DNA of 40,664 bases from Nitrososphaerales archaeon (GTDB taxonomy: Archaea; Thermoproteota; Nitrososphaeria; Nitrososphaerales; Gagatemarchaeaceae): positions 1-40,664 of the forward strand of contig JBJKSN010000038.1 in assembly GCA_046703945.1 (NCBI GenBank). Reading direction: 5' to 3'. The position numbers and the translations under genes were made by a program. How positions within the stretch are numbered: the first letter of the stretch is position 1; every line of letters begins with the position of its first letter. The notes below the pieces were generated by a model. It searched no databases, was not told the origin of the DNA, and was given only the letters and a program-made list of their open reading frames with translations. Below, in pieces: positions 13,185-40,664 of this stretch.

Positions 13185-13834
13185 CCCCTTTGTCTCCGCA
13201 TGGCCAGGAGCTGCGAGAGCGTGGTCTGGCCGGGGGCGGTCGGCTCTCCGGGGAGCGAAGCGTAAGCTATGGGGGTCCCCCGCTCGACGGCCATTATCCT
13301 CGAAAGCAGCCCGGCCTCGCCCATGCAGAAGGCGATGGGAGCAGGGACCCCGGCGTCGTACAAAGAGAGCACGGTGAGATTGTCTGAGGCCCTGCGGGCG
13401 GTGGGGACCAGCTTGGCCAGGCCCCCGAAAGCTCTCGCGTCTGTCAGTATGGAGGCCAGCCGAGCACTGGAAGGAGTCCGCGAGCGGTCGTGCCAAGAGA
13501 CGATGAGCCTCTGACCTGCGAGGCCACGAACGAGGTCCGGGCTAGCTCGCAAGGTGCGTAGCTCGACGTCCAAGAAGGCAGGGTGCAGGCGGCTGGCAGC
13601 CATGATGGCCTCCAGGCGGTCCGCCTCGCTCCCCTCGAAGCCGCCTCCCTCGTCCTGTGGCCTCACGGTGAGAATCGCCCTGCCCGCGAGCTCCGAGAGC
13701 CCCGACTCCCGCAGCTGGAACGGCCTGAGGGAGTCCAGCCTGAACTCGACGAGGTCGGTGCCAAGGTTCAGTGCCCTCCGGGCTTTGCTTCTCTGTTCGG
13801 CCAGAGTTCCGGCAGACACAGAGGTGCAAATCAT
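13181..13834 (-). CDS. aroD: 3-dehydroquinate dehydratase, type I
   Basis: 217 aa. LVEFRLD and overall type I DHQase pattern. Sits between the DHQ synthase and shikimate dehydrogenase genes. Confidence 0.88.
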   Translation of the reverse strand: MICTSVSAGTLAEQRSKARRALNLGTDLVEFRLDSLRPFQLRESGLSELAGRAILTVRPQDEGGGFEGSEADRLEAIMAASRLHPAFLDVELRTLRASPDLVRGLAGQRLIVSWHDRSRTPSSARLASILTDARAFGGLAKLVPTARRASDNLTVLSLYDAGVPAPIAFCMGEAGLLSRIMAVERGTPIAYASLPGEPTAPGQTTLSQLLAMRRQRG

Positions 13835-13877
13835 CGTCAGCCCGGCCCCCTTCTGGGCTACGGCGGGCCCATGCCTC

Positions 13878-15672: not shown

Positions 15673-15674
15673 GC

Positions 15675-25550: not shown

Positions 25551-25551
25551 G

Positions 25552-26670
25552 TCAGTATCTTATCCTCGGGTCCAGGACCGCGTAGACCACGTCGACGATG
25601 AGGTTGGTCACCACAATTATGACGGCCGTCACTAGGACGTAGAGTTCCAGGAAGTTCACGTCCAGGACGTTTGCGGCGGCCAGGGCGGCGTTCCCGACCC
25701 CGGGCCAGGCGAACACTATCTCGACTATCACTACCCCGCCCATGAGATAGGAGACCAGCAGCCCCGATATGGTCACCGCCGGGAGGACAGCGTTTCTGAG
25801 CGCGTGTGTGTAGGTCACGACCCGCTCCTTGAGGCCCTTCGACCTCGCGAGCGTGATGTAGTCCTGCTTGAGCGCCTCCACCATGCTCGACCTCACTATC
25901 CTGGTGATGGCCCCTATCGACGTAATCGCCAGGGTCAGAGCAGGGAGGAACACCGCGAGGAGCGAGTCCCAGAAGTAGGGGAAGTTCAGGGAGAGCACCC
26001 CATCTATCACCGGCGCCCCTGTGTAGGCGACCACCGTCCCGGGATTGGAGAAGCAGATGGCGCAAGATGTGGCCACGGTGCTGCTTATGGAGAGCAGCCC
26101 GAGCCCGTGGATTCTGATGTAAAGCACGAAGAGTATCTGGAGGACGGCCCCGAACCAGAACTGTGGGACGGAATACCCTCCCAGTGAGACGATGCGGGAG
26201 ACGTGGTCGGGCCATTTGTTGTTGTGAGTCGCGGAGATGATGCCCAGGGGGATCCCCAGGATCACCGTCAGGAAGGCGGCCACCAGCGCCAGCTCGGCTG
26301 TGAACGGGAACCTGCTGAAGAAGGCGTTCCAGGTCGTGGTCAGAGGGGCGACTCCAGGGAGGAGGGAGTACCCCCAGTTGCCAGAGAGGGCGTTCTGCAG
26401 CCAGTAGAAATACTGACTCCACAGCGGGACTATGCACCCCTTCTGGAGGGCGGTGAACGCCTGGAAGGAGGGGCAAGAGGCTGTCGCCACGCCCACCGCC
26501 CTCGCCACGGAGAGCTTTGCGGCATCGTCAAGCCTTGGCGTGATGTATGGGGCGAGCGCCGTCGAGGGCGGGAGGAGGCCCCGCGTCAGATAGAAGATCA
26601 GGAGGCTGAGCGCGAAGAGGACGAAGACCATCAGGATCAGCCGCCTGATGACAAACTCGTAGAGCTTCAA
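25552..26670 (-). CDS. ABC transporter permease (OppB/DppB-like), system 1
   Basis: 372 aa. N-terminal FVIRRLILMVFVLFALSLLIFYL, motif ITLARSKGL, C-terminal DVVYAVLDPRIRY. The 25547..26476 track ORF is the wrong frame of the same DNA. Confidence 0.9.
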   Translation of the reverse strand: MKLYEFVIRRLILMVFVLFALSLLIFYLTRGLLPPSTALAPYITPRLDDAAKLSVARAVGVATASCPSFQAFTALQKGCIVPLWSQYFYWLQNALSGNWGYSLLPGVAPLTTTWNAFFSRFPFTAELALVAAFLTVILGIPLGIISATHNNKWPDHVSRIVSLGGYSVPQFWFGAVLQILFVLYIRIHGLGLLSISSTVATSCAICFSNPGTVVAYTGAPVIDGVLSLNFPYFWDSLLAVFLPALTLAITSIGAITRIVRSSMVEALKQDYITLARSKGLKERVVTYTHALRNAVLPAVTISGLLVSYLMGGVVIVEIVFAWPGVGNAALAAANVLDVNFLELYVLVTAVIIVVTNLIVDVVYAVLDPRIRY

Positions 26671-26745
26671 CGGGGTAGCTCACCGCCCCCTTCCTCTACC
26701 CGAGGTATCGATGCGAGGTGGCGCAGGAGAGGACATGGACCAATT

Positions 26746-26765
26746 CGAGTGACCCCTGTCACTCG
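26746..26765 (-). promoter_or_regulatory. perfect 8-bp hairpin immediately after the binding-protein stop (intra-operon attenuator or mRNA stabiliser candidate)
   Basis: CGAGTGAC-CCCT-GTCACTCG at 26746-26765, 2 nt downstream of the SBP1 stop (26768) and about 75 nt upstream of the oppB1 start. Confidence 0.4.
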
Positions 26766-26767
26766 TG

Positions 26768-28927
26768 TCAGTATAGGGTAGCGAAATACTGCGGTTCCCC
26801 GGTCGTGTAAATCGCTGGATTGAAGTAGAAGCCATGTACATTGGACGTCATCACCATCAGGATGTCAGGATAGAAAGTCCAGATGTCCATGACTTCCTTG
26901 TTGGCGAGCGCCTGCATCTGCTGGGTCGCGGTCGCTACGCCGGCGGCGTTGCCAGCAGCGCTTGCGGCCTCCGCCTGGGCGTAGAGAGCACCCATCTGCT
27001 GCAGGTTCCATCCGCCTGGACCAGTGTAGATGCCTCCCGGCGAGAGGATGGGGTTCAGGAAGTCGAGCGACCACGGATAGTCGTCAAACCAACCGAAGCA
27101 GGATTCCGCCCAACCGTAGACCTGACCGGAGAAGGCTTCTGTGGTCATCTGGCCGCAGGGGAGTGGGGTCACGTTGACCGTCAACCCCATGTTGTAAGTG
27201 GAACTTACGTTGTTAATCGTACCAGCGATCTGGTTGAGGATAGCTTGGTCCACTGTGTCTCCCTCGGCATAGACCAGTGAGAATGTCTGTGGCACTGGGT
27301 GGGCGCACTGGTTGTTGCTATCCAGAGTGGTGCAGCCAAAGGTGTTGTCGAACGTCCCAGACGGCGCCGCTGTGCCGTTCTCGAATGTGAATTGGGTGAG
27401 CGGGTGTTCCATCGCGCTCAGCAGGAGTGTCTGCACCTGGGCGGGACTGTAGCTGTAACCCGGAGCGAGGGACGACGAATGCGAGCCCGTAGGGGGTATG
27501 TTCGGCGGCTCCAGCTCGTTTGCCACCTGGCCGAGGTTGTTGTTCACCTGCTGGTCAATCAGCGTCAGGTTGACCGAGTCGCCCACTGCCTGCCTGAACC
27601 TCAGGTCTGCGAAGGGCTGGAACTTGTAGTAGTTCCCAGTGAACGGATTAGTCACGTTAGTGTCCAACGGGATGAAGTAGGTAGCGTACTGGCTGTAGGG
27701 TCCATAGATGGTGACCCCGGGGATTGTTGACTGCAACTGGCCCTGGTTGAGCCAGGCGGACCTGTTGGCGACGTCGTAGATGTTGGTATTGGCGACATCG
27801 ATAATCATGGCTTGCCCCGACGCCGCTGCGTTCTTGAGGTCGATCTCCCTGGTCGTCTGGTCAGGGACGTACTTGTAGGTCACAGTCTTAATCTGAGGAT
27901 GAATCGAATTGGTAGGGCCTCCCCAGTAATTGGGATTGGCCTGGAGCACTATGGTGTTCGATGCCGTGTTGACGCTCTGTATCGTGTAAGGCCCTGTCCC
28001 TGCGAGCGACCCGCCGGTGGAGGAGTCCAGGTAGGTGGCCGCGCATCCCTTCGGCGTGGCGCCAGCGTTGCAGGTGGCAGAGTAGTCGTCAAAGTACTGG
28101 TTCATCTGCTGGGTTACATTGCCAGACAGCGACGGATAGGGCAGATGATATCCAAGGCTAGGCTGGCTCCAAAGGGCGAGGTCGTGCGCCATCACGTAGT
28201 CGGGGGCGACTATGCTGGCCCACAGGTTGCCGAACAGGTAGAGGACGGCGCCGTTTGGATGCATGATGTTGATCTGGACTGACTCGGGGCCGGTCATCTG
28301 GACGAAGTTCTCATTGAGGACTGACTTCACGTATGAGTTACCATAGGTCTGGGTGCAGGCGCAGAGAGTCGTACTCAGAGACGTGTTAAGGAGTTGCTGC
28401 ATGATCCATGAGGCCTGAGTCCCGTGCCCTATGGGCGCGCTGCCGTCCATCACCAAGAGCCTGTTGTAAGCGAAGTAGACGTCGGAGGAGTTGAGAGTCT
28501 CGCCGTCGGCGAACTTGACTCCGTTCCTCAGGTTGATGTCCACAGTGTGGCCGTTGTTACTTATGGTGTAACTCGATGCTAGCCATGGGATAGGAGCGGT
28601 GTTGGTCCCGTTGAACCAGAAGAGGTTCTCATAGACGTTCTGCTCAACCGAGGCGCCATAGATGTCGTAGGAGACCTGCGGGTCAAGGAACTGTATCGTG
28701 GAGACAGTCTCGTAGGTTATGGAGGTCGGGACCTTGCCTGAAGGGATAGTTGACTGAACCGTGGATCCTGTAGTCGTTACTCCCGAGGTCGTCGTAGTGG
28801 TGGACGATGGCGCGTGGGCCGTCGTCAGATACAGAGCAGCCCCACCACCCACAACTATGATTACGATGACGATTACCGCACTTGCTACGCGCGAAATTGC
28901 AGCACGACGAGTCTGGAAAATGCGCAA
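26768..28927 (-). CDS. ABC substrate-binding protein, family 5 (OppA/DppA/NikA type), membrane-anchored with Thr/Ser-rich linker (SBP1)
   Basis: 719 aa, TTG start. N-terminal TM anchor AVIVIVIIVVGGGAALYL, then SSTTTTTSGVTTTGSTVQST (about 28747-28816), then a family-5 SBP body. Heads the oppBCDF system 1 operon. Confidence 0.85.
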   Translation of the reverse strand: MRIFQTRRAAISRVASAVIVIVIIVVGGGAALYLTTAHAPSSTTTTTSGVTTTGSTVQSTIPSGKVPTSITYETVSTIQFLDPQVSYDIYGASVEQNVYENLFWFNGTNTAPIPWLASSYTISNNGHTVDINLRNGVKFADGETLNSSDVYFAYNRLLVMDGSAPIGHGTQASWIMQQLLNTSLSTTLCACTQTYGNSYVKSVLNENFVQMTGPESVQINIMHPNGAVLYLFGNLWASIVAPDYVMAHDLALWSQPSLGYHLPYPSLSGNVTQQMNQYFDDYSATCNAGATPKGCAATYLDSSTGGSLAGTGPYTIQSVNTASNTIVLQANPNYWGGPTNSIHPQIKTVTYKYVPDQTTREIDLKNAAASGQAMIIDVANTNIYDVANRSAWLNQGQLQSTIPGVTIYGPYSQYATYFIPLDTNVTNPFTGNYYKFQPFADLRFRQAVGDSVNLTLIDQQVNNNLGQVANELEPPNIPPTGSHSSSLAPGYSYSPAQVQTLLLSAMEHPLTQFTFENGTAAPSGTFDNTFGCTTLDSNNQCAHPVPQTFSLVYAEGDTVDQAILNQIAGTINNVSSTYNMGLTVNVTPLPCGQMTTEAFSGQVYGWAESCFGWFDDYPWSLDFLNPILSPGGIYTGPGGWNLQQMGALYAQAEAASAAGNAAGVATATQQMQALANKEVMDIWTFYPDILMVMTSNVHGFYFNPAIYTTGEPQYFATLY

Positions 28928-28953: not shown

Positions 28954-28961
28954 GATTATAA
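28954..28961 (-). promoter_or_regulatory. TATA box for the SBP1 operon, overlapping the formamidase stop codon
   Basis: Minus-strand cgTTTATAATCac. The TAA stop of the upstream gene lies inside the box, which is centred about 31 nt upstream of TTG 28927. Confidence 0.4.
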
Positions 28962-29894
28962 ACGTTTGTTGGAAGACTTCGGGAAGACATCCAACGGCAT
29001 CATTGTTCCTACGACCCAGTTGGGAGAATCCACGACCTCGTGGATTCTGAGGTCAGCCGCTACACTGCAGAGGACGTAAGCTTCCTCCTTCGAGAGTCCG
29101 TAGTTCTTGGTCAGGTGGGTGATCATCCCCCTGGCTGACTCCTTGGCCGCAGTCATCAGGTCACTTGCGATTCCGGTAGTTGCATACCACCCTGCCTTAG
29201 CCTCAGGTTCGCCCTTGGTGTAGAAGTCTGGATAGATTAAGCCGGCACCCTTCTCGAGACCGAAGCGTATCTTCGCTGAGCCGGCGCACTCGATGGCACA
29301 GACACAGATCTCGCCGTCGCCCATGGCCGCGTGGATGTCTCCGGTCGAGAACAGAGCCCCCTTCGCGTGGACCGGGAGCCTCACCCTGCTCCCTGCTGTC
29401 GTGTGCCGTATGTCCATGTTCCCGCCGTGCTTCCCTGGGGGCATGACATCAAAGGAGCCCGCTTCCGCGGGCGCCACGCCGAGGACGCCGCAGAACGGCC
29501 TGACTGGAATTCTAATCCCCTTCTCGAAGCGGGCGTAATTCTCACCGTCTAGGTTCCACTTATACAGGAACGGCCTCTTGAACTCCTCCAGTAAACCCAG
29601 CCCCGGAAGTATCGCAGTCCAACCGAAGTCATCCACCTTCACATCCAATATGTCAAGAACAAGGGCGTCGCCGGGCTCAGCTCCTTCCACATAGACCGGC
29701 CCAGTCAACGGGTAGAGCTTCTCATTGTCGAGCTTTTCAAGGTCTGAGGACGTGGACTTCGCTGTCAGCTGCCAGCTGAGGACGTCGTTGGCGTCAAAGG
29801 TGACCGTGTCACCGGGTCTTACGGTCAACGCGGGCGTGTGCGACCTGTCCCACTTGTAGTGGAATGTCTCTCGTCCTATGTGATGAGAGGCCAA
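28956..29894 (-). CDS. acetamidase/formamidase-family amidohydrolase
   Basis: 312 aa, TTG start. Blocks HYKWDRSHTPALTVRPGDTVTFDANDV, GPVYVEGAEPGDALVLDILDV, GGNMDIRHTTAGSRVRLPVHAKGALFSTGDIHAAMGDGEICVCAIE, typical of the FmdA/AmdA family. Confidence 0.8.
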   Translation of the reverse strand: MASHHIGRETFHYKWDRSHTPALTVRPGDTVTFDANDVLSWQLTAKSTSSDLEKLDNEKLYPLTGPVYVEGAEPGDALVLDILDVKVDDFGWTAILPGLGLLEEFKRPFLYKWNLDGENYARFEKGIRIPVRPFCGVLGVAPAEAGSFDVMPPGKHGGNMDIRHTTAGSRVRLPVHAKGALFSTGDIHAAMGDGEICVCAIECAGSAKIRFGLEKGAGLIYPDFYTKGEPEAKAGWYATTGIASDLMTAAKESARGMITHLTKNYGLSKEEAYVLCSVAADLRIHEVVDSPNWVVGTMMPLDVFPKSSNKRL

Positions 29895-29998: not shown

Positions 29999-30325
29999 TT
30001 ACTGTGGGCGTAGGTATCGGCGCTTCATCTCGTCCGTGAACTCTAAGACCATCCTGTCGAGGAAAGCGACGAACGCCTCATCGGATGCCATTACCTGATA
30101 CTTGTTGGCGTCTATCTCCGCTTTGGCCCGCACCATGAAAGGATCCGACTTGAGTTTGTCGGACTTGTCGTAGACTTCAGCCAGTCTGCTAATCGCCTCA
30201 ATCAGCCTCAGCGGGCCATACATCTTCGGCTCGTGGACGCATCCTCTCGCCGCAGTGATCAGGAACACGGAAAGGTCGAAGATGTGCGCCTCGGCTCCTC
30301 CGTCTTGGGTAGCTTCTTCAGACAT
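29999..30325 (-). CDS. small helical protein of unknown function (resembles DUF6092-type proteins, from memory)
   Basis: Start at ATG 30325 (MSEEATQDGG...), an 8-nt overlap with the nitroreductase 3' end. 108 aa. The segment FLITAARGCVHEPKMYGPLRLIEAISRL resembles the ..SARGL.DEP..YGP.RLL.. core I recall for DUF6092. This is unverified. Confidence 0.55.
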   Translation of the reverse strand: MSEEATQDGGAEAHIFDLSVFLITAARGCVHEPKMYGPLRLIEAISRLAEVYDKSDKLKSDPFMVRAKAEIDANKYQVMASDEAFVAFLDRMVLEFTDEMKRRYLRPQ

Positions 30326-30905
30326 GCTGCTTCTCCTCCGCCGCCTTCCACGGCTCTCCGAATTTATCCAGATAGGTCTTCTTCCCAGACTTCTTCTTCT
30401 TGAGTGGACGGGGCGCATCCCTGGCGGGGTAGCCCACGGAGACCAGCAGTTCTGTCCTGCAGTGGGCGGGTAACTCCAGCAACCTGCTCACCGCCGCCTC
30501 GGAATACGATTTCACGAATGAACCGGCCAGCCCTATCGAGTACGCAGCTAGAATGACGTTCTCCGCGGCGGCTCCGGCGTCATACTTGGTGATCTCATCG
30601 ATCACCGTCCTACCGCTCTTCCTCGCCTCGTCCATGTCTGTACAGATGAATATTGCCGCCTTGCACTCCCCCAGGAAGCCCGGTCCGACGAGACGAACCA
30701 TCTTCAGGACGGTGGGATTTTTCACCACTAGCACGAAGCGGTAGGTGGCGTTTCCCGCCGTCGGCGCCCTGTGCGCCGCCCTGACCAGCACGTCCAGGAG
30801 CTCGTCGGGGACTGGCCTCGGGTCGAACTGCCTGCATGCATACCGCTTTCGGAGGATCTCGAAGAATGTACCTTGTACGGCCTTTACATCCAGTTCGCTC
30901 CCCAT
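30318..30905 (-). CDS. nitroreductase-family flavoprotein with Lys-rich C-terminal tail
   Basis: Block RYACRQFDPRPVPDELLDVLVRAAHRAPTAGNATYRFVLV. ATG 30905 is preferred over TTG 30920 because the TATA box is centred about 27 nt upstream of 30905. C-terminal tail PLKKKKSGKKTYLDKFGEPWKAAEEKQHV. Confidence 0.8.
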   Translation of the reverse strand: MGSELDVKAVQGTFFEILRKRYACRQFDPRPVPDELLDVLVRAAHRAPTAGNATYRFVLVVKNPTVLKMVRLVGPGFLGECKAAIFICTDMDEARKSGRTVIDEITKYDAGAAAENVILAAYSIGLAGSFVKSYSEAAVSRLLELPAHCRTELLVSVGYPARDAPRPLKKKKSGKKTYLDKFGEPWKAAEEKQHV

Positions 30906-30927
30906 GGAGGTTCGAACCAAGGCGGCG

Positions 30928-31016: not shown

Positions 31017-32840
31017 TTACAGACGTGGAATGTACTGGACGGCCGAGTCTGGCGCCAGCGCTAGACCAGACCTCGCGTCGATGGTAGGGACAGAGAAAGC
31101 AGGGGCGGCACTGGCCGATATGTTGGCAGCGTTGGAGTAGTAGAAGGCGTTGTAGTCGAAGCTCATCCCATCATAGAAGGTGTAGCCTTTCACCGTCGGC
31201 GCGAAGGTGACGTAGTAGGGCTGGTTGAAGACGAAGACCTCTGGAGCCAGGCTGACGATGTCATTCTGTAGCTGATAGAATATCGCCTGCCTCTGAGCGG
31301 GGTTGGTGGTAGCCCTTTCCTGAGCAATCAGGTTGTTGATGGTGGCATTGTTGAGCCATGACATCGACTCCCATGTGCCGCTGGCGGAACTCGAGTAAAT
31401 CGGATAGAAGTACGAGTCTGTGTCAGGATATAGCGGGTCATAGTAAATCTCCGAAATCTGGGGGGTGGTCGTGTTGCGGGCTGCCAGCTGGGTTATCGTC
31501 TGGAACGTCTGCGTGGCCAGGTTGACCTTTATGCCTAGGACGCTCTCCATGTTCGACTGGAAGAGTTCTGCGATCTGCTGCTCAGGTATGTTTCCGGTAA
31601 CGTATGTCAGGGTGATTGTGGTAGTCGACGGGTTGATGCCTGAGGCCTTGAGCATGGCCACCGCCTGGGTGGGGTTGTACGTGTACTGGAACACGTTGGG
31701 GTCATGGTACTGGTACGTGTTGGCTACCGGTCCCTGTGATTGGACGGCGCCGGGGAGAATCGTGGGGATGGCGGTGTAGTTGAACGCATACGAGACAGCC
31801 TTCCTGAAGTCAAGGTTGCCAAAAGCGCAACCGCACTGGGTGTTCATCACTAGACTGAAGGTGTTAGGGGATGCGAAGGTGTCCCAGGTCCAGCCCATCT
31901 GCTGGAGAGCCTGATAGGTCGGAACCGCCAGGAATGTCCCGGCCCAGTTCAGCTGGCCAGACCTTGCCAGTGACTGTACTGTCGAATCCGAGTCGATGTA
32001 CAGGTAGTTCACATTGTTGTAGGGGCTAGAGTTGCTTGCCCATCCCTTCCAGTAACTCGTGTACCGGGTAAGGGAGAGCTCGGCCCCCTGCTGCCAGTTC
32101 TTGAGCATGTATGGCCCGGAACCCGCGTCATGCGAGGTGAGCCAGGCGAGCCCCCAGTCTCCCATCGGGCTGCTGGCCGAGACGTTGGCCAAGTGTTGCG
32201 TCACCAGGTTCTGATCCACGATGAAGAAGAGCGAGAGCGAGCCGAGGAAAGGCGCGTAGACTTGGTTCAGCTTGAATTGGACTGCGGTCGCGTTCAGTGC
32301 CGTCACCCCAGACGGGCTAAGGACCGGAGTCCAGAGGCTGGAGAAGCCTTGCCCTATGGCGAGCTCTCTCTGCATCGAGAAGACTACGTCGCTCGCGTTC
32401 ATCACGTCGCCGTTGTGGAAGTGTATGCCGCTGTGCATGTCAAAAGTGTAGGTCAACCCGTTGGTCGCGATGGTCCAAGCTGTAGCCACGTTCGGCTGTA
32501 TGGCACCGTTGGGTGCCTGGGTGAGGAAGTTGTCATACATGTTGATGTTGGCAGCGAACTGCGTGTAGTCGTTGCCGGCTGCCGGATCCAGCGTCCCGAA
32601 CGGCTGGGCAACCTCTGCGTTGAGGGTCGAGTTGCCAGAAGTGGACGAGGTCGTGTATAGGCTGGTGGCAGTGGTGGAAGTCGTGGATGAAGAACTCACA
32701 CTAGTGGTGGTAGTCTTACCACCTGTGGTTGTTACAAAGTACACCCCGATACCAGCGACGATGATTATTACGACGATGACTACACCGATTACAGCGTTAG
32801 AAATCCCCGGCCTCTTGTAGTGGGAAACCTGCACCGGCAC
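31017..32840 (-). CDS. ABC substrate-binding protein, family 5, membrane-anchored with Thr/Ser-rich linker (SBP2)
   Basis: 607 aa, GTG start. TM anchor AVIGVVIVVIIIVAGIGVYF followed by TTTGGKTTTTSVSSSSTTSTTATSLYTTSSTSGNST (about 32625-32732), then a family-5 SBP body. Confidence 0.85.
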   Translation of the reverse strand: MPVQVSHYKRPGISNAVIGVVIVVIIIVAGIGVYFVTTTGGKTTTTSVSSSSTTSTTATSLYTTSSTSGNSTLNAEVAQPFGTLDPAAGNDYTQFAANINMYDNFLTQAPNGAIQPNVATAWTIATNGLTYTFDMHSGIHFHNGDVMNASDVVFSMQRELAIGQGFSSLWTPVLSPSGVTALNATAVQFKLNQVYAPFLGSLSLFFIVDQNLVTQHLANVSASSPMGDWGLAWLTSHDAGSGPYMLKNWQQGAELSLTRYTSYWKGWASNSSPYNNVNYLYIDSDSTVQSLARSGQLNWAGTFLAVPTYQALQQMGWTWDTFASPNTFSLVMNTQCGCAFGNLDFRKAVSYAFNYTAIPTILPGAVQSQGPVANTYQYHDPNVFQYTYNPTQAVAMLKASGINPSTTTITLTYVTGNIPEQQIAELFQSNMESVLGIKVNLATQTFQTITQLAARNTTTPQISEIYYDPLYPDTDSYFYPIYSSSASGTWESMSWLNNATINNLIAQERATTNPAQRQAIFYQLQNDIVSLAPEVFVFNQPYYVTFAPTVKGYTFYDGMSFDYNAFYYSNAANISASAAPAFSVPTIDARSGLALAPDSAVQYIPRL

Positions 32841-32934: not shown

Positions 32935-34032
32935 ATGGGTTTAACGTCCCCAGAGACAGCGCCAAGAACGATGCTTTTCGGTCTCGATGACATCGAGCCG
33001 CTGGCTGTGGGGAGCGCTGTACTGGGGTCTGGGGGCGGAGGAAACCCGTACGTCGGCGCGCTCCTTCTCCGGAGCTCCATGGAGGCGAAAGGGGTGGACA
33101 AAATCAGCGTCACACCATTCGACCAGATTGACGAGTCCGATTTCCTCATCTGTTCGGCGGGGATGGGCTCTCCTGCCATAGGCATCGAAAAGCTGCCCAC
33201 CTACACGGATCATCTGCGCGCGTTCAGGGGGCTGGAGTCGTTTGTCGGGAAGAGGGCCACGCTGGTCTCCCCGATAGAGATAGGAGGGATCAATTCTCTG
33301 GTCCCGCTGGTGGTGGCCAGCCAGACGGGGCTCCCCGTGGCCGACGGAGACGGCGAGGGGCGCGCGTTCCCCGAACTGCAGATGACCACTCTGACTGGGT
33401 ACGGACTCACCGCGTCTCCGGTCTGCCTGGCAGAGGAGCGCGGCAACACCCTGATAATCAACGGCATCTCAGACATCTGGGTCGAGCGTCTCGCGCGAGC
33501 CGCCACGGTGACCTTTGGGGGGAGGGCCTACGTGGCAATATATCCACTGGAGGGGCGCGACTACATGAAGGGAGCCATCCCAGGCTCTCTGAGCCATGCC
33601 ATCAACATTGGCAGGTCTCTGCTGGAGGGCATCCAGCATAAGGACGCAGAAGACGCGCTCGTAAAGTCGTGCAACGCCAGACTGATCTTCACCGGGAAGG
33701 TCGTAGACGTGAAGCGCTACAACACCAGGGGGTTCGCAGTGGGCTACACAAAAGTCGAAGGGTTGGACGACTCAGCCCATGACGCAATGAAGGTATCGTT
33801 CCAGAACGAGTATCTGCTGGCTGAGACAGGCGACGCCCAAGGCGAACGACGCCGGCTGGCGGTCACCCCGGATATCATATCCATCCATGACATGGAGACG
33901 CTCCTACCCATAACCACAGATTCGCTCAGGTACGGGCAGAGGTGCAAGATATTTTCCATCCCCGTGAGCAGGAAGTGGGAATTTCCCGGGGCCCAGGACC
34001 TGGTGGGCCTCAAGGCGTTCAAGCTCGAGTGA
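32935..34032 (+). CDS. DUF917-family protein, paralog 1
   Basis: 365 aa (alternative start ATG 32971, which aligns with the N-terminus of paralog 2). Shared blocks with paralog 2: LGSGGGGNP, SPIEIGGINS, DGDGEGRAFPELQMTT, YPLEG, RYG. Confidence 0.8.
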   Translation: MGLTSPETAPRTMLFGLDDIEPLAVGSAVLGSGGGGNPYVGALLLRSSMEAKGVDKISVTPFDQIDESDFLICSAGMGSPAIGIEKLPTYTDHLRAFRGLESFVGKRATLVSPIEIGGINSLVPLVVASQTGLPVADGDGEGRAFPELQMTTLTGYGLTASPVCLAEERGNTLIINGISDIWVERLARAATVTFGGRAYVAIYPLEGRDYMKGAIPGSLSHAINIGRSLLEGIQHKDAEDALVKSCNARLIFTGKVVDVKRYNTRGFAVGYTKVEGLDDSAHDAMKVSFQNEYLLAETGDAQGERRRLAVTPDIISIHDMETLLPITTDSLRYGQRCKIFSIPVSRKWEFPGAQDLVGLKAFKLE

Positions 34033-34036: not shown

Positions 34037-34222
34037 TCACTTCATTCGGTAGAGCGCCCAGAACTCCGCTATACTGGCAACCCCGATGACGGCCGCCATG
34101 GGGACTACGTAGGCGAACCCGAACATTCCTAACGCCTGGAAGGCGGACGGGATGCCCAGCAAATCGAAGAGGAGGAAGGCGACAGTGAGCCCCATCTTCA
34201 GCGCGTAGTGTCCGAACCCCAC
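34037..34222 (-). CDS. small hydrophobic protein, two predicted TM helices
   Basis: 61 aa (GTG 34222, or ATG 9 codons in): LTVAFLLFDLLGIPSAFQALGMFGFAYVVPMAAVIGVASIAEFWALY. A strongly hydrophobic ORF is unusual for a chance frame in GC-rich DNA. It is the last ORF on the strand of ABC system 2. Confidence 0.4.
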   Translation of the reverse strand: MGFGHYALKMGLTVAFLLFDLLGIPSAFQALGMFGFAYVVPMAAVIGVASIAEFWALYRMK

Positions 34223-34317: not shown

Positions 34318-35271
34318 TCATGCGAAGTGGCACGCTACCCAATGTTCCTTCCCCTTATCTATAAACTGAGGATAAGTGTCGCAGACATCCTTCCTGAGCC
34401 AGCACCTGTCTCTGAAGACGCACCCCCCATGCCCGTTGACGGGCATTGTTGGGACCTCCTCAGGTACGTCAACGGGTTTCGCCCGCGTTTCGGAGTCGCT
34501 GACGACGGGCACAGAAGAGAGAAGAAGCCTCGTGTAGGGGTGCAGAGGATTCCTGAATATCTCGCTCGTTTCCCCCATCTCGCACATCTTCCCCTTGTAG
34601 ACCACCAGTGTCCTGTCGCAGAAGTTCGCGACCAGGCTCAGGTCGTGCGAGATGAACACGTACGTTATCTTCAGCCTCGCCCTCAGGTCCTTCAGAAGGG
34701 CGATTATCTTAGCCTGGACGGAGACATCAAGGGCTGAAGTCGGCTCGTCCAGAATCAGGACGTCGGGGCTCAGGGCCAGGGCGCGTGCGATTGCCACGCG
34801 TTGCTTTTCGCCGCCGCTCAGCGTGTGCGGATACCTATAGAGGTAGCTGTCGTCGAGGTTCACCAGCTTCAGAAGACCACTGACCTTGTCCGCGGACGTC
34901 TGGTGGTAGATTTTGAGCGGGGCTTCGACCAGATCCTTCACCTTCTGCCGTGGATTCAGAGACGACGTGGGGTCCTGGAAGACAGTCTGCACCTTCCTCC
35001 TGTAGTCCCTGACCTGGGCGTCCTTGAACCTCGATATGTCCTCCCCCTCGAAGAGTATCCGGCCCGCGTCTGGGCGATAGACCAGGAGCATCATCTTTGC
35101 TATCGTGGTCTTCCCCGACCCGGTCTCGCCTATGATCCCGAACGTCTCGCCGGGACGGACGCCGAAGCTCACGCCGCTCACCGCTTGTATCTCGGCCCTG
35201 GTGCTCCTCACTAGCCCGCTCTTGACTTCGAAGGTCTTCGTCACCCCTTCGAGGCTGTATATGTCTGTCAG
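34318..35271 (-). CDS. Opp/Dpp-type ABC ATP-binding protein (OppF-like), system 2 (start inferred at CTG 35271)
   Basis: Walker A GETGSGKTT, signature LSGGEKQRV, Walker B ILDEPTSALD. The expected N-terminus (M)TDIYSLEGVTKTFEV begins at a CTG overlapping the upstream TGA (CTGA at 35268-35271). The only upstream canonical start (ATG 35379) would overlap oppD2 by 112 nt. Confidence 0.85.
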   Translation of the reverse strand: MTDIYSLEGVTKTFEVKSGLVRSTRAEIQAVSGVSFGVRPGETFGIIGETGSGKTTIAKMMLLVYRPDAGRILFEGEDISRFKDAQVRDYRRKVQTVFQDPTSSLNPRQKVKDLVEAPLKIYHQTSADKVSGLLKLVNLDDSYLYRYPHTLSGGEKQRVAIARALALSPDVLILDEPTSALDVSVQAKIIALLKDLRARLKITYVFISHDLSLVANFCDRTLVVYKGKMCEMGETSEIFRNPLHPYTRLLLSSVPVVSDSETRAKPVDVPEEVPTMPVNGHGGCVFRDRCWLRKDVCDTYPQFIDKGKEHWVACHFA

Positions 35272-36242
35272 CTCGCCTGCCTCCGCTGTTCGGCCACATA
35301 GCAGGCGACGCTCTGCCCTGAGACGAGCTCTTTCAGCTCGGGTTGCCTGGTCCAACACTCGTCGATGGCGTAGGGGCACCTCGACGCGAAGCAGCAGCCC
35401 TTGGCTGCCCGGTCCTGCTGGGCGATTTCACCCTTGATCCCCTCCATGGACCTTGACCTATCCAGCGATGGAATCGAGTCGATTAGTCCCTGGGTGTATG
35501 GGTGGAGTGGCTTCCTGAAGATTTGCTCCGTGGGTCCGGTCTCCACCACGCGCCCGGCATACATCACGTAGGTCTTCATGGATGACTCCCGTGCTATGCC
35601 GAGGTTGTGCGTGATCAGGATAAGGCTCATCTTTTCCTCCTTGGTCAGGTCGGACAGCAGCGACAGGATTTCCTTCTGCGTCGTGACGTCGAGCGCCGTC
35701 GTCGGCTCGTCGGCAATCAGGAGGCTCGGCTTGCGCAGCAGGGCCATGGCTATCATGACGCGCTGGCGCATGCCGCCGCTGAGCTGGAAGGGGAACATGC
35801 GGAGTATCTTGCCATCCCCGTAGCACCGAGCCCCCTCCAGGGCAGATCTGATTCGGCTCGCCCGCCCTTCCTTAGTCTCCTTCCCATGGAGCGACCAGTT
35901 GAGGACGTCATTCATCTGGTCTCCCACTCGGAAAAGCGGATTGATGGACGACATGGGGTTCTGGAATATCATGGCGATGCGCTCCCGAGCGGCGGCTGCG
36001 CCTTCCTTGGTGAGCACGTCCGCGCCATCGAAGGATATGCTGCCGGAGTTGACCACGGCGTTCTTCGGGAGGACACCCATCACCGCCCTAGCCGTGAGGG
36101 TCTTGCCGCTTCCTGTCTCCCCTACTATGGCCACGGTCTCCGACCTGTCCAGCGTTAGTGAAACGTCGCTGAGGATTGGAAGGACCCGACCCTCGGCGCG
36201 AACCGAGAGGCTCAGCCCGCTGACTTCAAGGAAGGAGGTCAT
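35268..36242 (-). CDS. Opp/Dpp-type ABC ATP-binding protein (OppD-like), system 2
   Basis: Start at ATG 36242 (MTSFLEVSGLSLSV) overlaps the permease stop (ATGA). Walker A GETGSGKT, signature LSGGMRQRV, Walker B LIADEPTTALD. Confidence 0.9.
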   Translation of the reverse strand: MTSFLEVSGLSLSVRAEGRVLPILSDVSLTLDRSETVAIVGETGSGKTLTARAVMGVLPKNAVVNSGSISFDGADVLTKEGAAAARERIAMIFQNPMSSINPLFRVGDQMNDVLNWSLHGKETKEGRASRIRSALEGARCYGDGKILRMFPFQLSGGMRQRVMIAMALLRKPSLLIADEPTTALDVTTQKEILSLLSDLTKEEKMSLILITHNLGIARESSMKTYVMYAGRVVETGPTEQIFRKPLHPYTQGLIDSIPSLDRSRSMEGIKGEIAQQDRAAKGCCFASRCPYAIDECWTRQPELKELVSGQSVACYVAEQRRQAS

Positions 36243-37108
36243 ACCACCTTCACGTCGAATAGGTCTCTGATGCCGTTGCCTATCAAGTTGAAAGCGAGGA
36301 TGAGAAGGGTGAGGGCGATGCTGGGGAAGACCGGAATCCACCACTTCGTTGCGATGTAGCTCGAACCGGCTGCCACCATCACCCCGAGGTCAGGGGTGGG
36401 GGGGCGGACGCCGATGCCGAGAAAGCCCATGCCCGCCTCGATCAGGATGATGAAACCGGCGTCCAGCATCACCTTCGCGGAGAGGGTGGATGCGGCGTTG
36501 GGGAGGATTTCCCTGAACATTATCCTGAAGGCGCCGGCGCCCTGGACCCGCGCGGCCTCGACGTAGGGCTGGTTTTTGAGAGACTTCGTCAGGGTGAACA
36601 TGATGCGGGCATACCAGTTCCACCACAGGCTCAGGAGCGCGATAATCACGTCTTGGAGGCTAGGCCCCAGTATACCCGTGATTACCAGAGCGAAGATCAA
36701 CGCGGGGAGGGCGAGGAAGACGTCGGTGACCCGCTCCACCAACGCCTCGACCCAGCCGCCATAGTAGCCGGCGACCAGCCCCAGAGTGACGCCTAGCATG
36801 ACGCTGGGGATGAGGACCACAGCGGCGATGAAGAGCGATACTCGGAAGCCGAAGATGACGCGGGTGAAGACATCCCTCCCGACGTCGTCCGTCCCGAAGA
36901 GGTGAGTCAGAGACGGGTGGAGGAAAGCCTGGGCGAAGTTCGCGTAGGCCCCCACCTCATTGGGGTAGGGGGTGATGTAGGGAGCGAAGAGAGCCAGGAC
37001 GACCATGACAGCGAGCATCACCAGGCCCGCGAATGCCATCCGGTCGTAGGTGAGCCGCCTGAAGGACCTGACGAAATCCTGCCAGCGCGCGCTCGAGGCG
37101 TCGCTCAG
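36239..37108 (-). CDS. ABC transporter permease (OppC-like), system 2 (start inferred at CTG 37108)
   Basis: The track ORF starts at ATG 37039, right at the first TM helix. The in-frame upstream 23 codons read (L)SDASSARWQDFVRSFRRLTYDR, a typical OppC cytoplasmic N-terminus, with no canonical start. CTG 37108-37106 overlaps the oppB2 TGA (CTGA). C-terminal GNGIRDLFD. Confidence 0.85.
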   Translation of the reverse strand: MSDASSARWQDFVRSFRRLTYDRMAFAGLVMLAVMVVLALFAPYITPYPNEVGAYANFAQAFLHPSLTHLFGTDDVGRDVFTRVIFGFRVSLFIAAVVLIPSVMLGVTLGLVAGYYGGWVEALVERVTDVFLALPALIFALVITGILGPSLQDVIIALLSLWWNWYARIMFTLTKSLKNQPYVEAARVQGAGAFRIMFREILPNAASTLSAKVMLDAGFIILIEAGMGFLGIGVRPPTPDLGVMVAAGSSYIATKWWIPVFPSIALTLLILAFNLIGNGIRDLFDVKVV

Positions 37109-38121
37109 TGGCCCTCACCCAGCCGGATTCTTGGGTCTATGTAGCCGAGGCTCAGGTCGATGAGGAGGTTGAGCACCACATAGAACAGCCCTATGACCAG
37201 GACTGTCGCGACGATGGCGTTAAAGTCGTCGCTCTGCATCGCCGTGACCGCATAGGTGGACAAGCCGCCCCAACTGAAGACCTCCTCGACGAAGAAAGCG
37301 TTGGCGATGAGCGACGCATAGAGCAGCCCCAGCACCGTGAGGACCGGGATGAGGGCGCTCCGGAGGGCGTACTTGAAATCCAGGGCCAAGGACTTCGCAC
37401 CGAACGTCTTCAGAGCGAGATAGTAGTCTTCCTGTGTCTCGTCGAGCATGCCTGAGTAGGTCAGCTGCGCTATCTGCCCGATGCCTGCCAGCGAAAGGGC
37501 GATCTCTGGTAGGAGGAGATGCTCCGAAGTGCTCACGAAGGCGGGCCAGTTGCCGGTTAGCATGCTGTCGACCCAGAGCATCCCTGTGATGTGGGCAGGA
37601 GCAGGCCCGCTTATCTGACCTATGATCGCGTTGAAGTGGAACCAGTAGCTCGAGATTACCTGCAGTCCGAGTCCGACCGTGAACGGAGGTATGGCTATGC
37701 CTACCATCCAGAGGGCGCGGACCGCGCCTGAGAGGACCTTCCCTCTCCTCGAGGCGGCGATGACGCCGAGGGGTATGCCGATCAGTGCCGTGAGGACGAT
37801 CGATATGGTGATGAGCTCAAAGGTCGCCGGGAAGTGTATCTCGACGTCGTGGAGTACGTTCTGCTTGGTGACGAGGGACTGGCCCCACTGGCCATGGATG
37901 AAGTTCCAGAGCCAATAGAAGTACTGCTCATAGAGGGGTTTGTTGAGTCCCAGCTGCCTGTCGTAGGCGGCCACCTGGGCCGCGGTGGCATACGGACCCA
38001 ACGCGAGCCGGCCCGGGTCAGCAGGGAGGACGCGGGAGAGGTAGAAAATCACTAGTGAGAGTCCGACTAGTGTGACTAGGGCGAGCAGAGCCCTGCGAGC
38101 GACAAACTCGGCAAACCGCAA
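37105..38121 (-). CDS. ABC transporter permease (OppB-like), system 2
   Basis: 338 aa, TTG start. N-terminal FVARRALLALVTLVGLSLVIFYL, C-terminal DLSLGYIDPRIRL. Confidence 0.9.
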   Translation of the reverse strand: MRFAEFVARRALLALVTLVGLSLVIFYLSRVLPADPGRLALGPYATAAQVAAYDRQLGLNKPLYEQYFYWLWNFIHGQWGQSLVTKQNVLHDVEIHFPATFELITISIVLTALIGIPLGVIAASRRGKVLSGAVRALWMVGIAIPPFTVGLGLQVISSYWFHFNAIIGQISGPAPAHITGMLWVDSMLTGNWPAFVSTSEHLLLPEIALSLAGIGQIAQLTYSGMLDETQEDYYLALKTFGAKSLALDFKYALRSALIPVLTVLGLLYASLIANAFFVEEVFSWGGLSTYAVTAMQSDDFNAIVATVLVIGLFYVVLNLLIDLSLGYIDPRIRLGEGH

Positions 38122-38247
38122 TCCTTAGACCAAACTAAGGGGCGTTTGTTATTTAAGAGATTGGCCGGACTCGGCGGGGCCGGCAATCGCGGGCAATGGG
38201 CAGGTCGTTCAGGATAAATAGGCGACCAGGGCTGTCTCGACCGAGAA
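38122..38247. promoter_or_regulatory. divergent promoter region (oppB2 <-> DUF917 paralog 2)
   Basis: Minus-sense CTTAAATAAC (plus coordinates 38148-38157) is centred about 31 nt from TTG 38121. Plus-sense gGATAAATAgg (38213-38220) is centred about 31 nt from GTG 38248. Confidence 0.45.
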
Positions 38248-39330
38248 GTGCAAATCGGCCCAGACGAAATCGAGCGTATTGCCCTCGGCGCCGCATTCCT
38301 CGGGACCGGAGGAGGAGGCGACCCGTTTGTCGGAAAACTTCTCGCGCTCGACGCAGTCGACAGGTACGGGCCCGTGGAGTTGATTCAGCCGGAGGCCGTG
38401 CCGGATGAGGGCCTGGTCATACCATCGGCGATGATGGGGGCGCCGACTGTGATGGTCGAGAAGATTCCCAACGGCAGCGAGGGGATGCAGGCGCTGAAGT
38501 CCCTTCAGAGCAGGCTGGGGAAGAAAGCGTTCGCCATTTCTCCCATAGAGGAGGGCGGGATAAACTCGCAGATACCAATAGCCGTGGCCGCGAACCTCAG
38601 GCTGCCGCTGGTCGACTGTGACGGGATGGGGCGGGCGTTCCCGGAGCTTCAGATGGTGACGTTCACTCTCTATGGCATCACCGCGGCGCCCATGGTGATG
38701 GCTGACGAGAAGGGGAACGCGCTCCAGATGGACACGATAGACAACCTGTGGACCGAGAGGATAGCGAGGTCGGTCACGGTGCAGATGGGCGGTTCTGCCC
38801 TGATCGCCATTTACCCGATGGAGGGCCGCCGGCTGAAAGAGTCGTGTGTCAGAGGGTCGGTCACCCTAGCCATGCAGGTCGGCGGGATGATCGCTGAGGC
38901 GAGGGCCCATGGGTCCAATCCTGCTGAACGGATCATGGAGCGGATGAATAGCGTCGTCCTCTTCAAGGGGAAGGTGGTAGACATACTGAGACGGACGACA
39001 GCTGGGTTCGCGAAGGGCGAAGCTACCTTCGACGGGCTGGACGAATTCTCAGGGAAATCTCTCACAGTGAGGTTCCAAAACGAGAACCTCATGGCCACCA
39101 TGGATGGAAAACCTGTGGCGATGGTCCCAGACTTGATCTCAGTCCTCGACCTCGAGTCGGGGCTCCCTATGACCACGGAAGGGCTCAGGTATGGGAACAG
39201 GGCCCTCGTACTTGGGACCCCCTGCGACCCGAAGTGGAGGACTCCAGAGGGCATCAAACTGGTGGGGCCAAGATATTTCGGCTACGACTTTGACTACGTG
39301 CCGGTGGAGGAGCTGGTGAGCTCTAGATGA
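38248..39330 (+). CDS. DUF917-family protein, paralog 2
   Basis: 360 aa, GTG start. Blocks LGTGGGGDP, SPIEEGGINS, DCDGMGRAFPELQMVT, YPMEG, RYG. The stop overlaps the ATG of the next gene (ATGA at 39327-39330). Confidence 0.8.
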   Translation: MQIGPDEIERIALGAAFLGTGGGGDPFVGKLLALDAVDRYGPVELIQPEAVPDEGLVIPSAMMGAPTVMVEKIPNGSEGMQALKSLQSRLGKKAFAISPIEEGGINSQIPIAVAANLRLPLVDCDGMGRAFPELQMVTFTLYGITAAPMVMADEKGNALQMDTIDNLWTERIARSVTVQMGGSALIAIYPMEGRRLKESCVRGSVTLAMQVGGMIAEARAHGSNPAERIMERMNSVVLFKGKVVDILRRTTAGFAKGEATFDGLDEFSGKSLTVRFQNENLMATMDGKPVAMVPDLISVLDLESGLPMTTEGLRYGNRALVLGTPCDPKWRTPEGIKLVGPRYFGYDFDYVPVEELVSSR

Positions 39331-40664
39331 ACAAGTTCAGAATAGGGATCGACGTCGGCGGGACCCACACCGATGCCGTGATTCTCGACGAGGCGAACAA
39401 GCTGGTCGGGGCCGAGAAGGTCGACACCACCGCTGACGTCTCGACGGGGATAGACGACGCGCTTGCCGCGGTCCTCGCGAACAGCGAAATCGACAGGAAG
39501 AGCGTCGCCGCGGTGATGTTCGGGACCACTCACTGCACCAATGCCATCGTGGAGAGAAAGAAACTGGCCAGAGTGGGGCTGCTGAGGATCGGCAAGCCGG
39601 CGACCATGGGGATCAGGCCTCTCTACTCCCTCCCCGGAGACCTGCGGGCCGCCATAGGCGACATATGGGAGGTCATACATGGAGGGAACGAGTTCGACGG
39701 GAGGGAGATCTGGCCGCTGGACGAGGAGGGGGCCAGGCGGGCCGCGGAGCGATTCAGGAAGGAGGGTGTGGAGGCCGCGGCGGTGTCTGCCGTCTTTTCA
39801 CCGGTGAGCGCCACCCACGAGAAGCGCGCAGGGGAAATCCTGTCGGAGGTGCTCGGCAATGACGTCCAGGTCACGCTATCTCACGAGATAGCCAGCATCG
39901 GGCTGCTCGAGAGGGAGAACGCAACGGCGCTCAACGCCGCTTTGGTGAAGGTCGCCAACATGGCCTTCGACGGTTTCGTCCGGTCGGTGAAGACGTCAGG
40001 GCTGGACAAGGCGAACATCTTCCTTACGCAGAACGACGGCACCCTGATGAATGTAGCCTATGCGAAGAAGTATCCTGTGAAGACCATAGCGTCGGGCCCG
40101 ACCAACAGCATGAGAGGGGCCGCCTTCCTCACCGGCCTGACCGATGGGATCATCATAGACATCGGTGGGACGACCACCCTGGTCGGCGCTGTTGTGAAGG
40201 GATTCCCCAGAGAGTCCAGCGTGGCCGTCGAAATCGGCGGAGCGCGCACCAACTTCAGGATGCCCGACCTTCTGGCGGTGAGCTGCGGGGGCGGTACCGT
40301 AGTCACCCTGGAGGGCGGCCATGTGAAGGTGGGGCCCCAGAGCGTCGGATTCAGAATCGCCAAGGAGAGCGTGGCCTGGGGAGGGAAGACGCTCACCACC
40401 ACGGACGTCAGCTTAGGTCTCGGGAAGGCGAAGGTGGACGACCCTTCCTGCGACCCCGAGCGGGTCAGGAAGTCGCTTCCCGAGGAGGCGCTCAAGAAGG
40501 CACTCGACACAATAGTGTCCGTTGTGGAGGAGTCGGTCGACAGGGTGAAGACGTCTGCCCAGCCAGTCCCGGTCGTCCTCGTAGGCGGGGGAGGCATCTT
40601 CATCCCCCCTGAGTACTATCCGAAGTTCAGGGGCGCCCAGCGGGTGGACAGGCCGCCCCACTTC
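39327..40664 (+). CDS. hydantoinase/oxoprolinase A-type (HyuA-like, ASKHA-fold) ATPase, 3'-truncated by the window edge
   Basis: Not in the ORF track because it has no stop inside the window; translated by hand. It is open for 446 codons to the last base. MNKFRIGIDVGGTHTDAVILD... (phosphate-1 motif), ...IIIDIGGTTTLVG... (second ASKHA motif), ...VPVVLVGGGG. Confidence 0.85.
   Translation, partial: MNKFRIGIDVGGTHTDAVILDEANKLVGAEKVDTTADVSTGIDDALAAVLANSEIDRKSVAAVMFGTTHCTNAIVERKKLARVGLLRIGKPATMGIRPLYSLPGDLRAAIGDIWEVIHGGNEFDGREIWPLDEEGARRAAERFRKEGVEAAAVSAVFSPVSATHEKRAGEILSEVLGNDVQVTLSHEIASIGLLERENATALNAALVKVANMAFDGFVRSVKTSGLDKANIFLTQNDGTLMNVAYAKKYPVKTIASGPTNSMRGAAFLTGLTDGIIIDIGGTTTLVGAVVKGFPRESSVAVEIGGARTNFRMPDLLAVSCGGGTVVTLEGGHVKVGPQSVGFRIAKESVAWGGKTLTTTDVSLGLGKAKVDDPSCDPERVRKSLPEEALKKALDTIVSVVEESVDRVKTSAQPVPVVLVGGGGIFIPPEYYPKFRGAQRVDRPPHF

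Follow-up and report, generated by a model that had tools for sequence, protein, structure and literature searches.

At the 3′ end of a 40,664-nt stretch of DNA from a Nitrososphaerales archaeon (contig JBJKSN010000038.1 of assembly GCA_046703945.1; the whole stretch is referred to here as the window), the second of two DUF917 genes, DUF917 paralog 2, is followed on the same strand by a gene for a short HyuA-like ASKHA ATPase. There is a strong case for regarding these two genes as a functional unit. On balance, we consider their products to be the two modules of a single ATP-dependent enzyme for an imported cyclic amide, in which DUF917 would fill the role that HyuB has in classical hydantoinase-type systems. 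Our confidence in the specific chemistry proposed for the pair is moderate.

The 3′ end of DUF917 paralog 2, which starts with GTG, reads TCT AGA TGA, and its TGA (39328-39330) overlaps the ATG of the HyuA-like gene (39327-39329). A TAG codon (39324-39326) directly precedes this ATG in the HyuA-like frame and makes an earlier start impossible. Since the resulting N-terminus, MNKFRIGIDVGGT, also aligns with those of homologues, the 4-nt overlap is forced. It had been described in an earlier sequence-only reading of this DNA, with which the open reading frame (ORF) coordinates, the sequence and the homologue alignment all agree. That reading had also taken the overlap for the tightest coupling in the window, but identical 4-nt overlaps are routine here, occurring in at least six other same-strand pairs (2464/2467, 4285/4288, 7706/7709, 10203/10206, 16736/16739 and 25547/25550). 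Coupled translation is favoured by such an arrangement, whereas the production of both proteins in equal amounts, which had been deduced from it, is not established by an overlap, and the argument for joint function from the ATGA alone is weak. A Shine-Dalgarno-like GGTGAG situated 6 nt from the HyuA-like ATG is a plausible ribosome-binding site for that gene. Upstream of the pair, an AT-rich GATAAATAGG (38213-38222, + strand), about 26-35 nt 5′ of the GTG, could be an archaeal TATA box, implying a leaderless or short-leader transcript. A scan of the region for sigma-70 promoters and terminators gave nothing above chance, the bacterial sigma-70 consensus being of little use for an archaeal host.

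Both proteins were assigned to Pfam families. DUF917 paralog 2 matched the Pfam domains S-Me-THD_N (4.5e-56) and S-Me-THD_C (7.9e-71), formerly DUF917, while the 446 visible codons of the HyuA-like gene matched Hydant_A_N (6.4e-39; 133.9 bits against a cut-off of 25.2) and Hydantoinase_A (2.4e-32; 112.8 bits against 22.9). Three ATP-binding motifs have been defined for HyuA-type subunits: phosphate 1 (DxGGTxxD), phosphate 2 (DxGGT) and adenosine (GxxPGP) (PMC8453981). The first is found as DVGGTHTD at residues 9-16 of the HyuA-like protein and is invariant as DVGGT(H/N)TD in the homologue alignment; the second is found as DIGGT at residues 278-282 and is likewise invariant as D(I/V)GGT.

Conservation of the pairing was examined from both sides. 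A DUF917 alignment was used as seed in a scan of one genome per species, and a HyuA-like alignment was used in the reverse scan of metagenome contigs. Each sample consists of the 80 loci closest to its query and its statistics describe this clade only. The DUF917-seeded loci span Bacillota, Chloroflexota, Pseudomonadota, Actinomycetota, Spirochaetota, Thermoproteota, Nitrososphaerota and Halobacteria, and in 77 of the 80 a short HyuA gene adjoins the DUF917 gene in the same direction, split or truncated copies included. The other three comprise two loci cut at a contig edge (L016 and L056) and one (L018) in which HyuA lies 6.5 kb upstream on the same strand, leaving no clear counter-example among the 80. 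Conversely, every full-length short HyuA gene of this sample (77 of 77; 513-558 aa, plus the 533-aa orthologue of L002) adjoins a same-strand DUF917 gene. The spacing within the 77 pairs ranges from -17 to +87 nt, and most overlap (by 1, 4, 8, 11 or 17 nt) or leave a gap of 10 nt or less. In the HyuA-seeded sample DUF917 was adjacent in 76 of 80 loci, three of the remainder being truncated and one, L149, a real exception. The L149 gene (3242-4909) is the sole informative short HyuA without DUF917 within 3-5 kb, its neighbours being a PucR-type regulator and a family-5 binding protein. The adjacency of the two families in public genomes, which the sequence-only reading had proposed to measure, is therefore conserved across many phyla and is nearly obligate.

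Two gene orders were observed, DUF917 preceding HyuA in 90 pairs and following it in 50. The order tracks HyuA phylogeny and agrees between nearest neighbours in 95% of cases; as each order is clade-specific, the adjacency must have survived rearrangement. The two families also co-diverge: in a mirror-tree comparison the pairwise distances of DUF917 and HyuA were correlated with r = 0.79, whereas the highest value reached by any of 500 permutations was 0.13. Many loci hold between two and six DUF917 paralogs for a single HyuA. In the Chloroflexota loci L029, L031, L033, L053, L063 and L072 (approximately 3000-13400) as many as five or six DUF917 paralogs stand in tandem behind a single short HyuA gene, which suggests that one ATPase works with several DUF917 modules or that the assemblies are heteromeric. 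Three loci, L010 (2045-4488), L011 (2291-4723) and L013 (2165-4630), all on the minus strand, contain a second, divergent DUF917 gene (250-277 bits) beside an ORF of 427-458 aa. This ORF matches the short-HyuA profile weakly (40-77 bits) and, in the two copies scanned against Pfam (L010 and L011), has no match there; such pairs may represent a remote variant of the DUF917-HyuA association.

The two modules are also found in single proteins. A profile built from concatenated DUF917/HyuA pairs retrieved proteins with all four Pfam domains, namely P0241 (906 aa) and P0242 (896 aa), which are metagenome proteins and likely prokaryotic, plus about 20 eukaryotic proteins of approximately 1000 aa. 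A profile of these fusions was then run against a library clustered at 50% identity. Among the top 149 representatives, 112 carried both modules and 86 were full-length fusions, 85 of them with HyuA first; none joined the short HyuA to HyuB instead of DUF917. HyuA-DUF917 fusions thus occur in at least 86 sequence clusters, including those of animals (the starfish Acanthaster, the sea spider Nymphon, the amphioxus Branchiostoma, Lineus, several molluscs, crinoids and Lingula), fungi (Tolypocladium, Lentinula and Sanghuangporus) and other eukaryotes such as Balamuthia, Pelomyxa and Anaeramoeba. Some predicted fusions are oversized, with large extra regions: P0406 (2715 aa), P0440 (3066 aa), P0453 (2540 aa) and P0366 from Pelomyxa (1451 aa). 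The association is already visible in public domain annotations, for example in the JGI name of P0241; a literature search found no paper describing the DUF917-HyuA pair.

Structure models were obtained with AlphaFold2 for the window protein and for a fusion. The model of DUF917 paralog 2 had a predicted local distance difference test (pLDDT) score of 89.9 and a predicted template-modelling score (pTM) of 0.90. Its sole significant Foldseek match in the PDB was 2o3i (TM 0.8), that is CV_3147 of Chromobacterium violaceum, a structural-genomics protein without assigned function which provides the only solved DUF917 fold and is 23-24% identical to the window DUF917. As the searched structures included the B-type chains of acetone carboxylase, acetophenone carboxylase and caprolactamase, the idea that DUF917 is a distant HyuB was rejected. 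The model of P0241, based on 22 fusion sequences, reached a pLDDT of 82 and a pTM of 0.80, with a disordered 27-residue linker at 520-546. From the definition of pTM, a value of approximately 0.55-0.6 would be expected if two modules of 519 and 360 residues had no fixed position relative to each other, and the higher value suggests a defined arrangement of the two modules. The sequence-only reading had asked for a predicted or observed physical interaction; a linkage of this kind is supported by the natural fusions and by this model, and none of the three outcomes that the reading would have taken as a refutation was encountered. The N-terminal module of P0241 matched the HyuA-type chains 9h03_A, 5svc_B, 5l9w_B and 6yra_A, which are ATP-binding subunits of acetone carboxylase, acetophenone carboxylase and caprolactamase and, for 9h03, a fused N-methylhydantoinase; the C-terminal DUF917 module again matched 2o3i only. 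The best of the HyuA-module matches, 9h03_A, has 1277 residues, was released in 2025 and is titled 'NMHase, dihydrouridine', a title which hints that HyuA/HyuB-type enzymes may act on dihydropyrimidine nucleosides. No paper on 9h03 was found in a literature search.

The partner expected of a HyuA-type subunit is missing from the window. As the sequence-only reading had remarked, HyuB is absent: jackhmmer, seeded with a verified HyuB protein (L016:5005-6738; Pfam Hydantoinase_B, 560 bits), retrieved none of the window ORFs of at least 60 aa. The region downstream of the window was read from close relatives, the exact DUF917 protein being present only on one 2.5-kb contig with the same endpoint as the window. 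The HyuA proteins of L168, L169 and L002 are 92%, 85% and 79% identical to the window fragment, respectively, and the DUF917 of L003 is 79% identical to that of the window. No HyuB was found in the flanks of these four relatives, including the position next to HyuA at which the sequence-only reading had proposed to look. Their HyuA-like proteins have 492-533 aa as called, the 492-aa call of L003 starting 110 nt past DUF917; the hidden Markov model match begins 5′ of that start, which may be a late one. Short HyuA homologues have mostly 510-535 aa and the orthologues 512-533 aa. Pfam found no Hydant_A_C (PF19278) in the orthologues, a domain which the classical long HyuA of L016 does carry. A convergent Polysacc_deac_1 gene lies directly 3′ of HyuA in L168 (2718-3497), L169 (5197-6171) and L002 (12678-13484). 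The fourth relative, L003, has its copy at 1036-1851, and the gene after HyuA is a convergent Kelch-repeat-like one with weak or faint Pfam matches. The polysaccharide-deacetylase family includes the PuuE-type allantoinase, and this gene could provide another ring-opening or deacylating step.

Across the 160 related loci, HyuB was present in eight and absent in 152. Where enough flanking sequence was available, it adjoined a second HyuA gene, different from the short one paired with DUF917: a long classical HyuA in L016, L079 and L144, and a distinct, weakly scoring HyuA-like ORF in L046. In the remaining four the contig ends at or near HyuB.

Set beside known HyuA/HyuB enzymes – caprolactamase CapAB, 5-oxoprolinase OplAB, N-methylhydantoinase and the acetone and acetophenone carboxylases – the window HyuA has in common with them the Hydant_A_N and Hydantoinase_A domains and the phosphate-1 and phosphate-2 motifs, and these enzymes provide its nearest solved structures. 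Both systems are encoded by two genes, the second module not being an ATPase, and the permease and racemase genes around the DUF917-HyuA pair are typical of hydantoin or lactam use, as for HyuA/HyuB enzymes. In contrast, classical A subunits of approximately 650-710 aa contain Hydant_A_C, and the short HyuA is about 160 aa shorter and lacks it. Classical systems also encode, or fuse, Hydantoinase_B (PF02538), for which the window pair has only DUF917, a protein with a fold unrelated to HyuB in which the Asp-His-Asp-His metal site reported for CapB is missing.

DUF917 is no longer a wholly uncharacterised family, since NCBIfam names two equivalogs within it, a thiohydantoin desulfurase and an S-methyl thiohydantoin desulfurase (NF058529, NF058532). 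We considered that the window DUF917s might be such desulfurases and rejected this on score, context and residues. The window proteins scored 97.8 bits against a cut-off of 450 and 76.6 against 440, whereas our positive control, the S-methyl thiohydantoin desulfurase at locus L170 on an Agrobacterium plasmid, scored 555 bits. Next to the L170 desulfurase lies a gene for an S-methyl thiourocanate hydratase (976 bits), and no HyuA-like gene is closer to the desulfurase than 7 kb; a phmmer search with that hydratase as query found no (S-methyl)thiourocanate hydratase in the window or the 160 loci. The desulfurases share with paired DUF917s both S-Me-THD domains and the core residues G104, N106, D123, G128-R129, R174, N278-E279 and P294-D295, but 17 positions that never vary among paired and fused DUF917s are different in the L170 enzyme, including the acidic E71, E101 and D125, the basic K242, R248 and R318, and Y315. 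The window pair combines co-directional adjacency, an orthologous HyuA without Hydant_A_C and a DUF917 with all seven of these residues. No Cys or His is universally conserved in the DUF917 alignment of paired, fused and desulfurase proteins.

The desulfurases stand alone, and distant DUF917 genes with no HyuA nearby exist as well (for example in L167). The proposal of the sequence-only reading that DUF917 is the functional partner of the ATPase is therefore supported for this DUF917 clade and not for the whole family. DUF917 paralog 1 of the window was tested for membership of a recurrent 'second subunit' clade and was found to cluster only with its L003 orthologue. It keeps E71, E101, D125, K242, R248, Y315 and R318 and has no adjoining HyuA gene; both paralogs may use the one ATPase.

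The substrate of the desulfurases, a cyclic ureide with a five-membered ring, is in keeping with the hydantoin-type surroundings of the pair. These enzymes belong to ergothioneine catabolism and, to judge from their NCBIfam names, presumably displace a sulfur leaving group (H2S or methanethiol) from C2 of the thiohydantoin. Caprolactamase binds ATP through CapA, for which phosphorylation of the substrate in its lactim form has been proposed; the ring is opened after transfer of the substrate to the metal-containing CapB (PMC8453981).

We propose that the pair belongs to a catabolic cluster importing a small cyclic amide or ureide that could be hydantoin-, diketopiperazine- or lactam-like. Import would be effected by the Opp/Dpp-type ATP-binding cassette (ABC) transporter in the window and by an NCS1 'cytosine/hydantoin' permease in many relatives. 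By analogy with caprolactamase, 5-oxoprolinase and N-methylhydantoinase, the short HyuA would then phosphorylate the lactim oxygen of the substrate with ATP, and DUF917, as a catalytic or substrate-handling module possibly in complex with it, would take the activated intermediate and perform a HyuB-like substitution or ring opening. The O-phospho-lactim would be an electrophile of the same kind as the thiohydantoin of the desulfurases, with phosphate in place of sulfur as the leaving group. The need for HyuA to install this leaving group would account for both the ATPase partner and the additional acidic and basic residues of the paired clade.

Several observations weigh against this proposal. 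No GxxPGP adenosine motif could be recognised in the short HyuA alignment; its place may be taken by the GGG(G/S) that is invariant at residues 420-423. The DUF917/HyuA interface is deduced from the pTM alone, and the pLDDT of the five P0241 models runs from 82 down to 70. Both sets of loci are confined to the neighbourhood of their queries, as noted above. In three loci, L144 (2-6161), L145 (3-4089) and L157 (2-3628), a same-strand HyuB lies directly upstream of a DUF917-short HyuA pair, preceded by a classical long HyuA in L144 and cut by the contig end in L145 and L157; the classical and the DUF917-containing systems can thus coexist, even within a single operon-like array, and need not be mutual replacements. 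The genomic contexts, with NCS1 permeases, ABC transporters or cyclodipeptide oxidases (CDOs), are heterogeneous, so that there is probably no single substrate. Lastly, two consecutive enzymes without any complex between them would also fit the adjacency and fusion.

Such a pair of independent enzymes is the alternative that we take most seriously, although we consider it unlikely. DUF917 alone would open or modify the ring and the HyuA-like protein would be a kinase or ATP-dependent hydrolase for another intermediate, their adjacency and fusion reflecting only metabolic channelling or co-regulation. Fusion of consecutive enzymes is common, and the solitary desulfurases and the L167 gene, the excess of DUF917 paralogs over HyuA in many loci and the lack of a HyuA beside paralog 1 are all in keeping with it. 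It accounts less readily for an adjacency that is nearly obligate in both directions, for the pTM of the fusion and for a paired clade with its own invariant charged residues. Moreover, no HyuA-type subunit is known to be a complete enzyme without a second catalytic subunit (compare caprolactamase, PMC8453981).

A role for the HyuA-like ATPase as an activase or chaperone of DUF917, comparable to GlmL/MutL for glutamate mutase or to HgdC/BcrAD-type proteins and involving no phosphorylation of the substrate, seems very doubtful. The protein does give weak secondary Pfam and NCBIfam matches to MutL, BcrAD_BadFG and GlmL, and one ATPase for several DUF917 paralogs would suit a shared activator. 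Its primary matches, however, are to Hydant_A_N and Hydantoinase_A (of the order of 1e-39 and 1e-32), structurally it comes closest to the subunits by which acetone carboxylase, acetophenone carboxylase and caprolactamase phosphorylate their substrates, and DUF917 has no evident signature of a radical or redox cofactor, such as a universally conserved Cys or His. Finally, a classical HyuA/HyuB enzyme with HyuB encoded elsewhere in the genome, DUF917 being an accessory or unrelated neighbour, is scarcely credible: the genome was seen only as this 40.6-kb window, which ends inside the HyuA-like gene, and HyuB does lie near the pair in eight of 160 loci, but it is missing from the other 152 and from the flanking regions of all four closest relatives, adjoins a second HyuA where enough flanking sequence is available, and in none of the top 149 fusion-search representatives is it the partner of the short HyuA, which itself lacks Hydant_A_C.

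If the DUF917-HyuA pair is indeed one enzyme, a shared functional interpretation would become available for thousands of genes annotated as 'hydantoinase/oxoprolinase family protein' and 'DUF917 domain-containing protein', among them genes on plasmids of lactobacilli and rhizobia and in Clostridioides difficile, archaea, fungi, amphioxus, starfish and molluscs. Two non-homologous catalytic partners would then be known for ATP-driven lactam or hydantoin chemistry. The pair would also be a concrete candidate for opening stable cyclic amides, with a bearing on nitrogen scavenging, the turnover of diketopiperazine signals and biocatalysis; related HyuAB enzymes are reportedly being explored for the hydrolysis of stable lactams. 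More speculatively, and with a good deal of doubt, the pair could represent a distinct and ancient class of ATP-dependent enzymes present in all three domains of life, with 2,5-diketopiperazines as possible substrates in loci that contain CDO and ABC transporter genes. We know of no well-defined, dedicated hydrolase gene family for the very stable 2,5-diketopiperazine ring, and an ATP-driven cyclic-dipeptide hydrolase is what the DUF917-HyuA pair could be.

The genes surrounding the pair are listed in Table 1. The ABC importer next to DUF917 paralog 2 is transcribed divergently from it, and this type of transporter recurs in many related loci. Among the 80 DUF917-seeded loci, an NCS1 permease was found in 36 and an Asp/Glu/hydantoin racemase in ten, together with Opp/Dpp ABC components; recurrent regulators in this sample were of the TetR, PucR and sigma-54 types. 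According to their annotation, plasmids of L. plantarum and Sodalis carry a compact module of cytosine permease, DUF917 and hydantoinase/oxoprolinase. On the L. plantarum plasmid NZ_CP035145 the pair is WP_041153566/WP_063964007, and in C. difficile it is CDR20291_1616/1617. The expression of the corresponding three genes of C. difficile, CDR20291_1615-1617, changes together (PMC12915319).

Table 1 Features of the DUF917-HyuA region and its surroundings in the window
Feature	Position	Strand	Basis
Second complete Opp/Dpp-type ABC importer (two ATPases, permeases, 719-aa binding protein), beside the acetamidase/formamidase gene	22481-28927	-	
Acetamidase/formamidase-family amidase	28956-29894	-	Pfam
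Cyclodipeptide-oxidase-like pair	29999-30920	-	CDOA PF00881, CDOB PF19585
CDOB, DUF6092	29999-30325	-	PF19585, 93 bits
CDOA, nitroreductase family, 200 aa	30318-30920	-	PF00881
Family-5 solute-binding protein (SBP_bac_5) of the ABC importer	31017-32840	-	Pfam
DUF917 paralog 1, 365 aa, 42% identical to paralog 2	32935-34032	+	ORF, Pfam
Small hydrophobic 61-aa ORF, between DUF917 paralog 1 and the ABC ATPase genes	34037-34222	-	ORF
Opp/Dpp-type ABC importer	34318-38121	-	Translations; Pfam on orthologues L001-L004
ABC importer ATPases	34318-35379, 35268-36344	-	
ABC importer permeases	36239-37039, 37105-38121	-	
DUF917 paralog 2 (S-Me-THD-like), 360 aa	38248-39330	+	ORF, Pfam PF06032 + PF20906
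Shine-Dalgarno-like GGTGAG, inside the DUF917 3′ end	39315-39320	+	Sequence; function inferred
ATGA stop/start overlap of DUF917 paralog 2 and the HyuA-like gene	39327-39330	+	Sequence
Short HyuA-like ASKHA ATPase, 446 codons visible, cut by the window end	39327-40664	+	ORF, Pfam

The CDOA and CDOB genes of the window overlap by 8 nt, and a CDO pair is also present in L003. We considered the CDO as a core part of the system and rejected this, as it occurs in only 12 of the 160 related loci (approximately 8%) and is thus an optional neighbour of the core pair. No cyclodipeptide synthase (CDPS) match was obtained among the window ORFs scanned against Pfam, no dedicated CDPS search having been run. 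The non-CDPS CDO clusters described by Andreas and Giessen resemble the window in combining CDOA and CDOB, a dipeptide-type ABC transporter and DUF917 genes (Nat Commun 2024, PMC11055893). In the sections of that paper covered here, DUF917 is enriched in these clusters and described as experimentally uncharacterised putative hydantoinases, and a HyuA-like partner is not named. The acetamidase/formamidase may catalyse a downstream step of the pathway, a weak link since only two related loci have this gene. The 61-aa ORF has no Pfam match, and a small ORF of L003 (5809-6081) occupies the equivalent position. An aromatic amino-acid biosynthesis cluster at the other end of the window (483-17959), whose 3-dehydroquinate synthase II and GHMP-family shikimate kinase are of archaeal type and point to an archaeal source of the DNA, also includes aspartate kinase and aspartate semialdehyde dehydrogenase genes.

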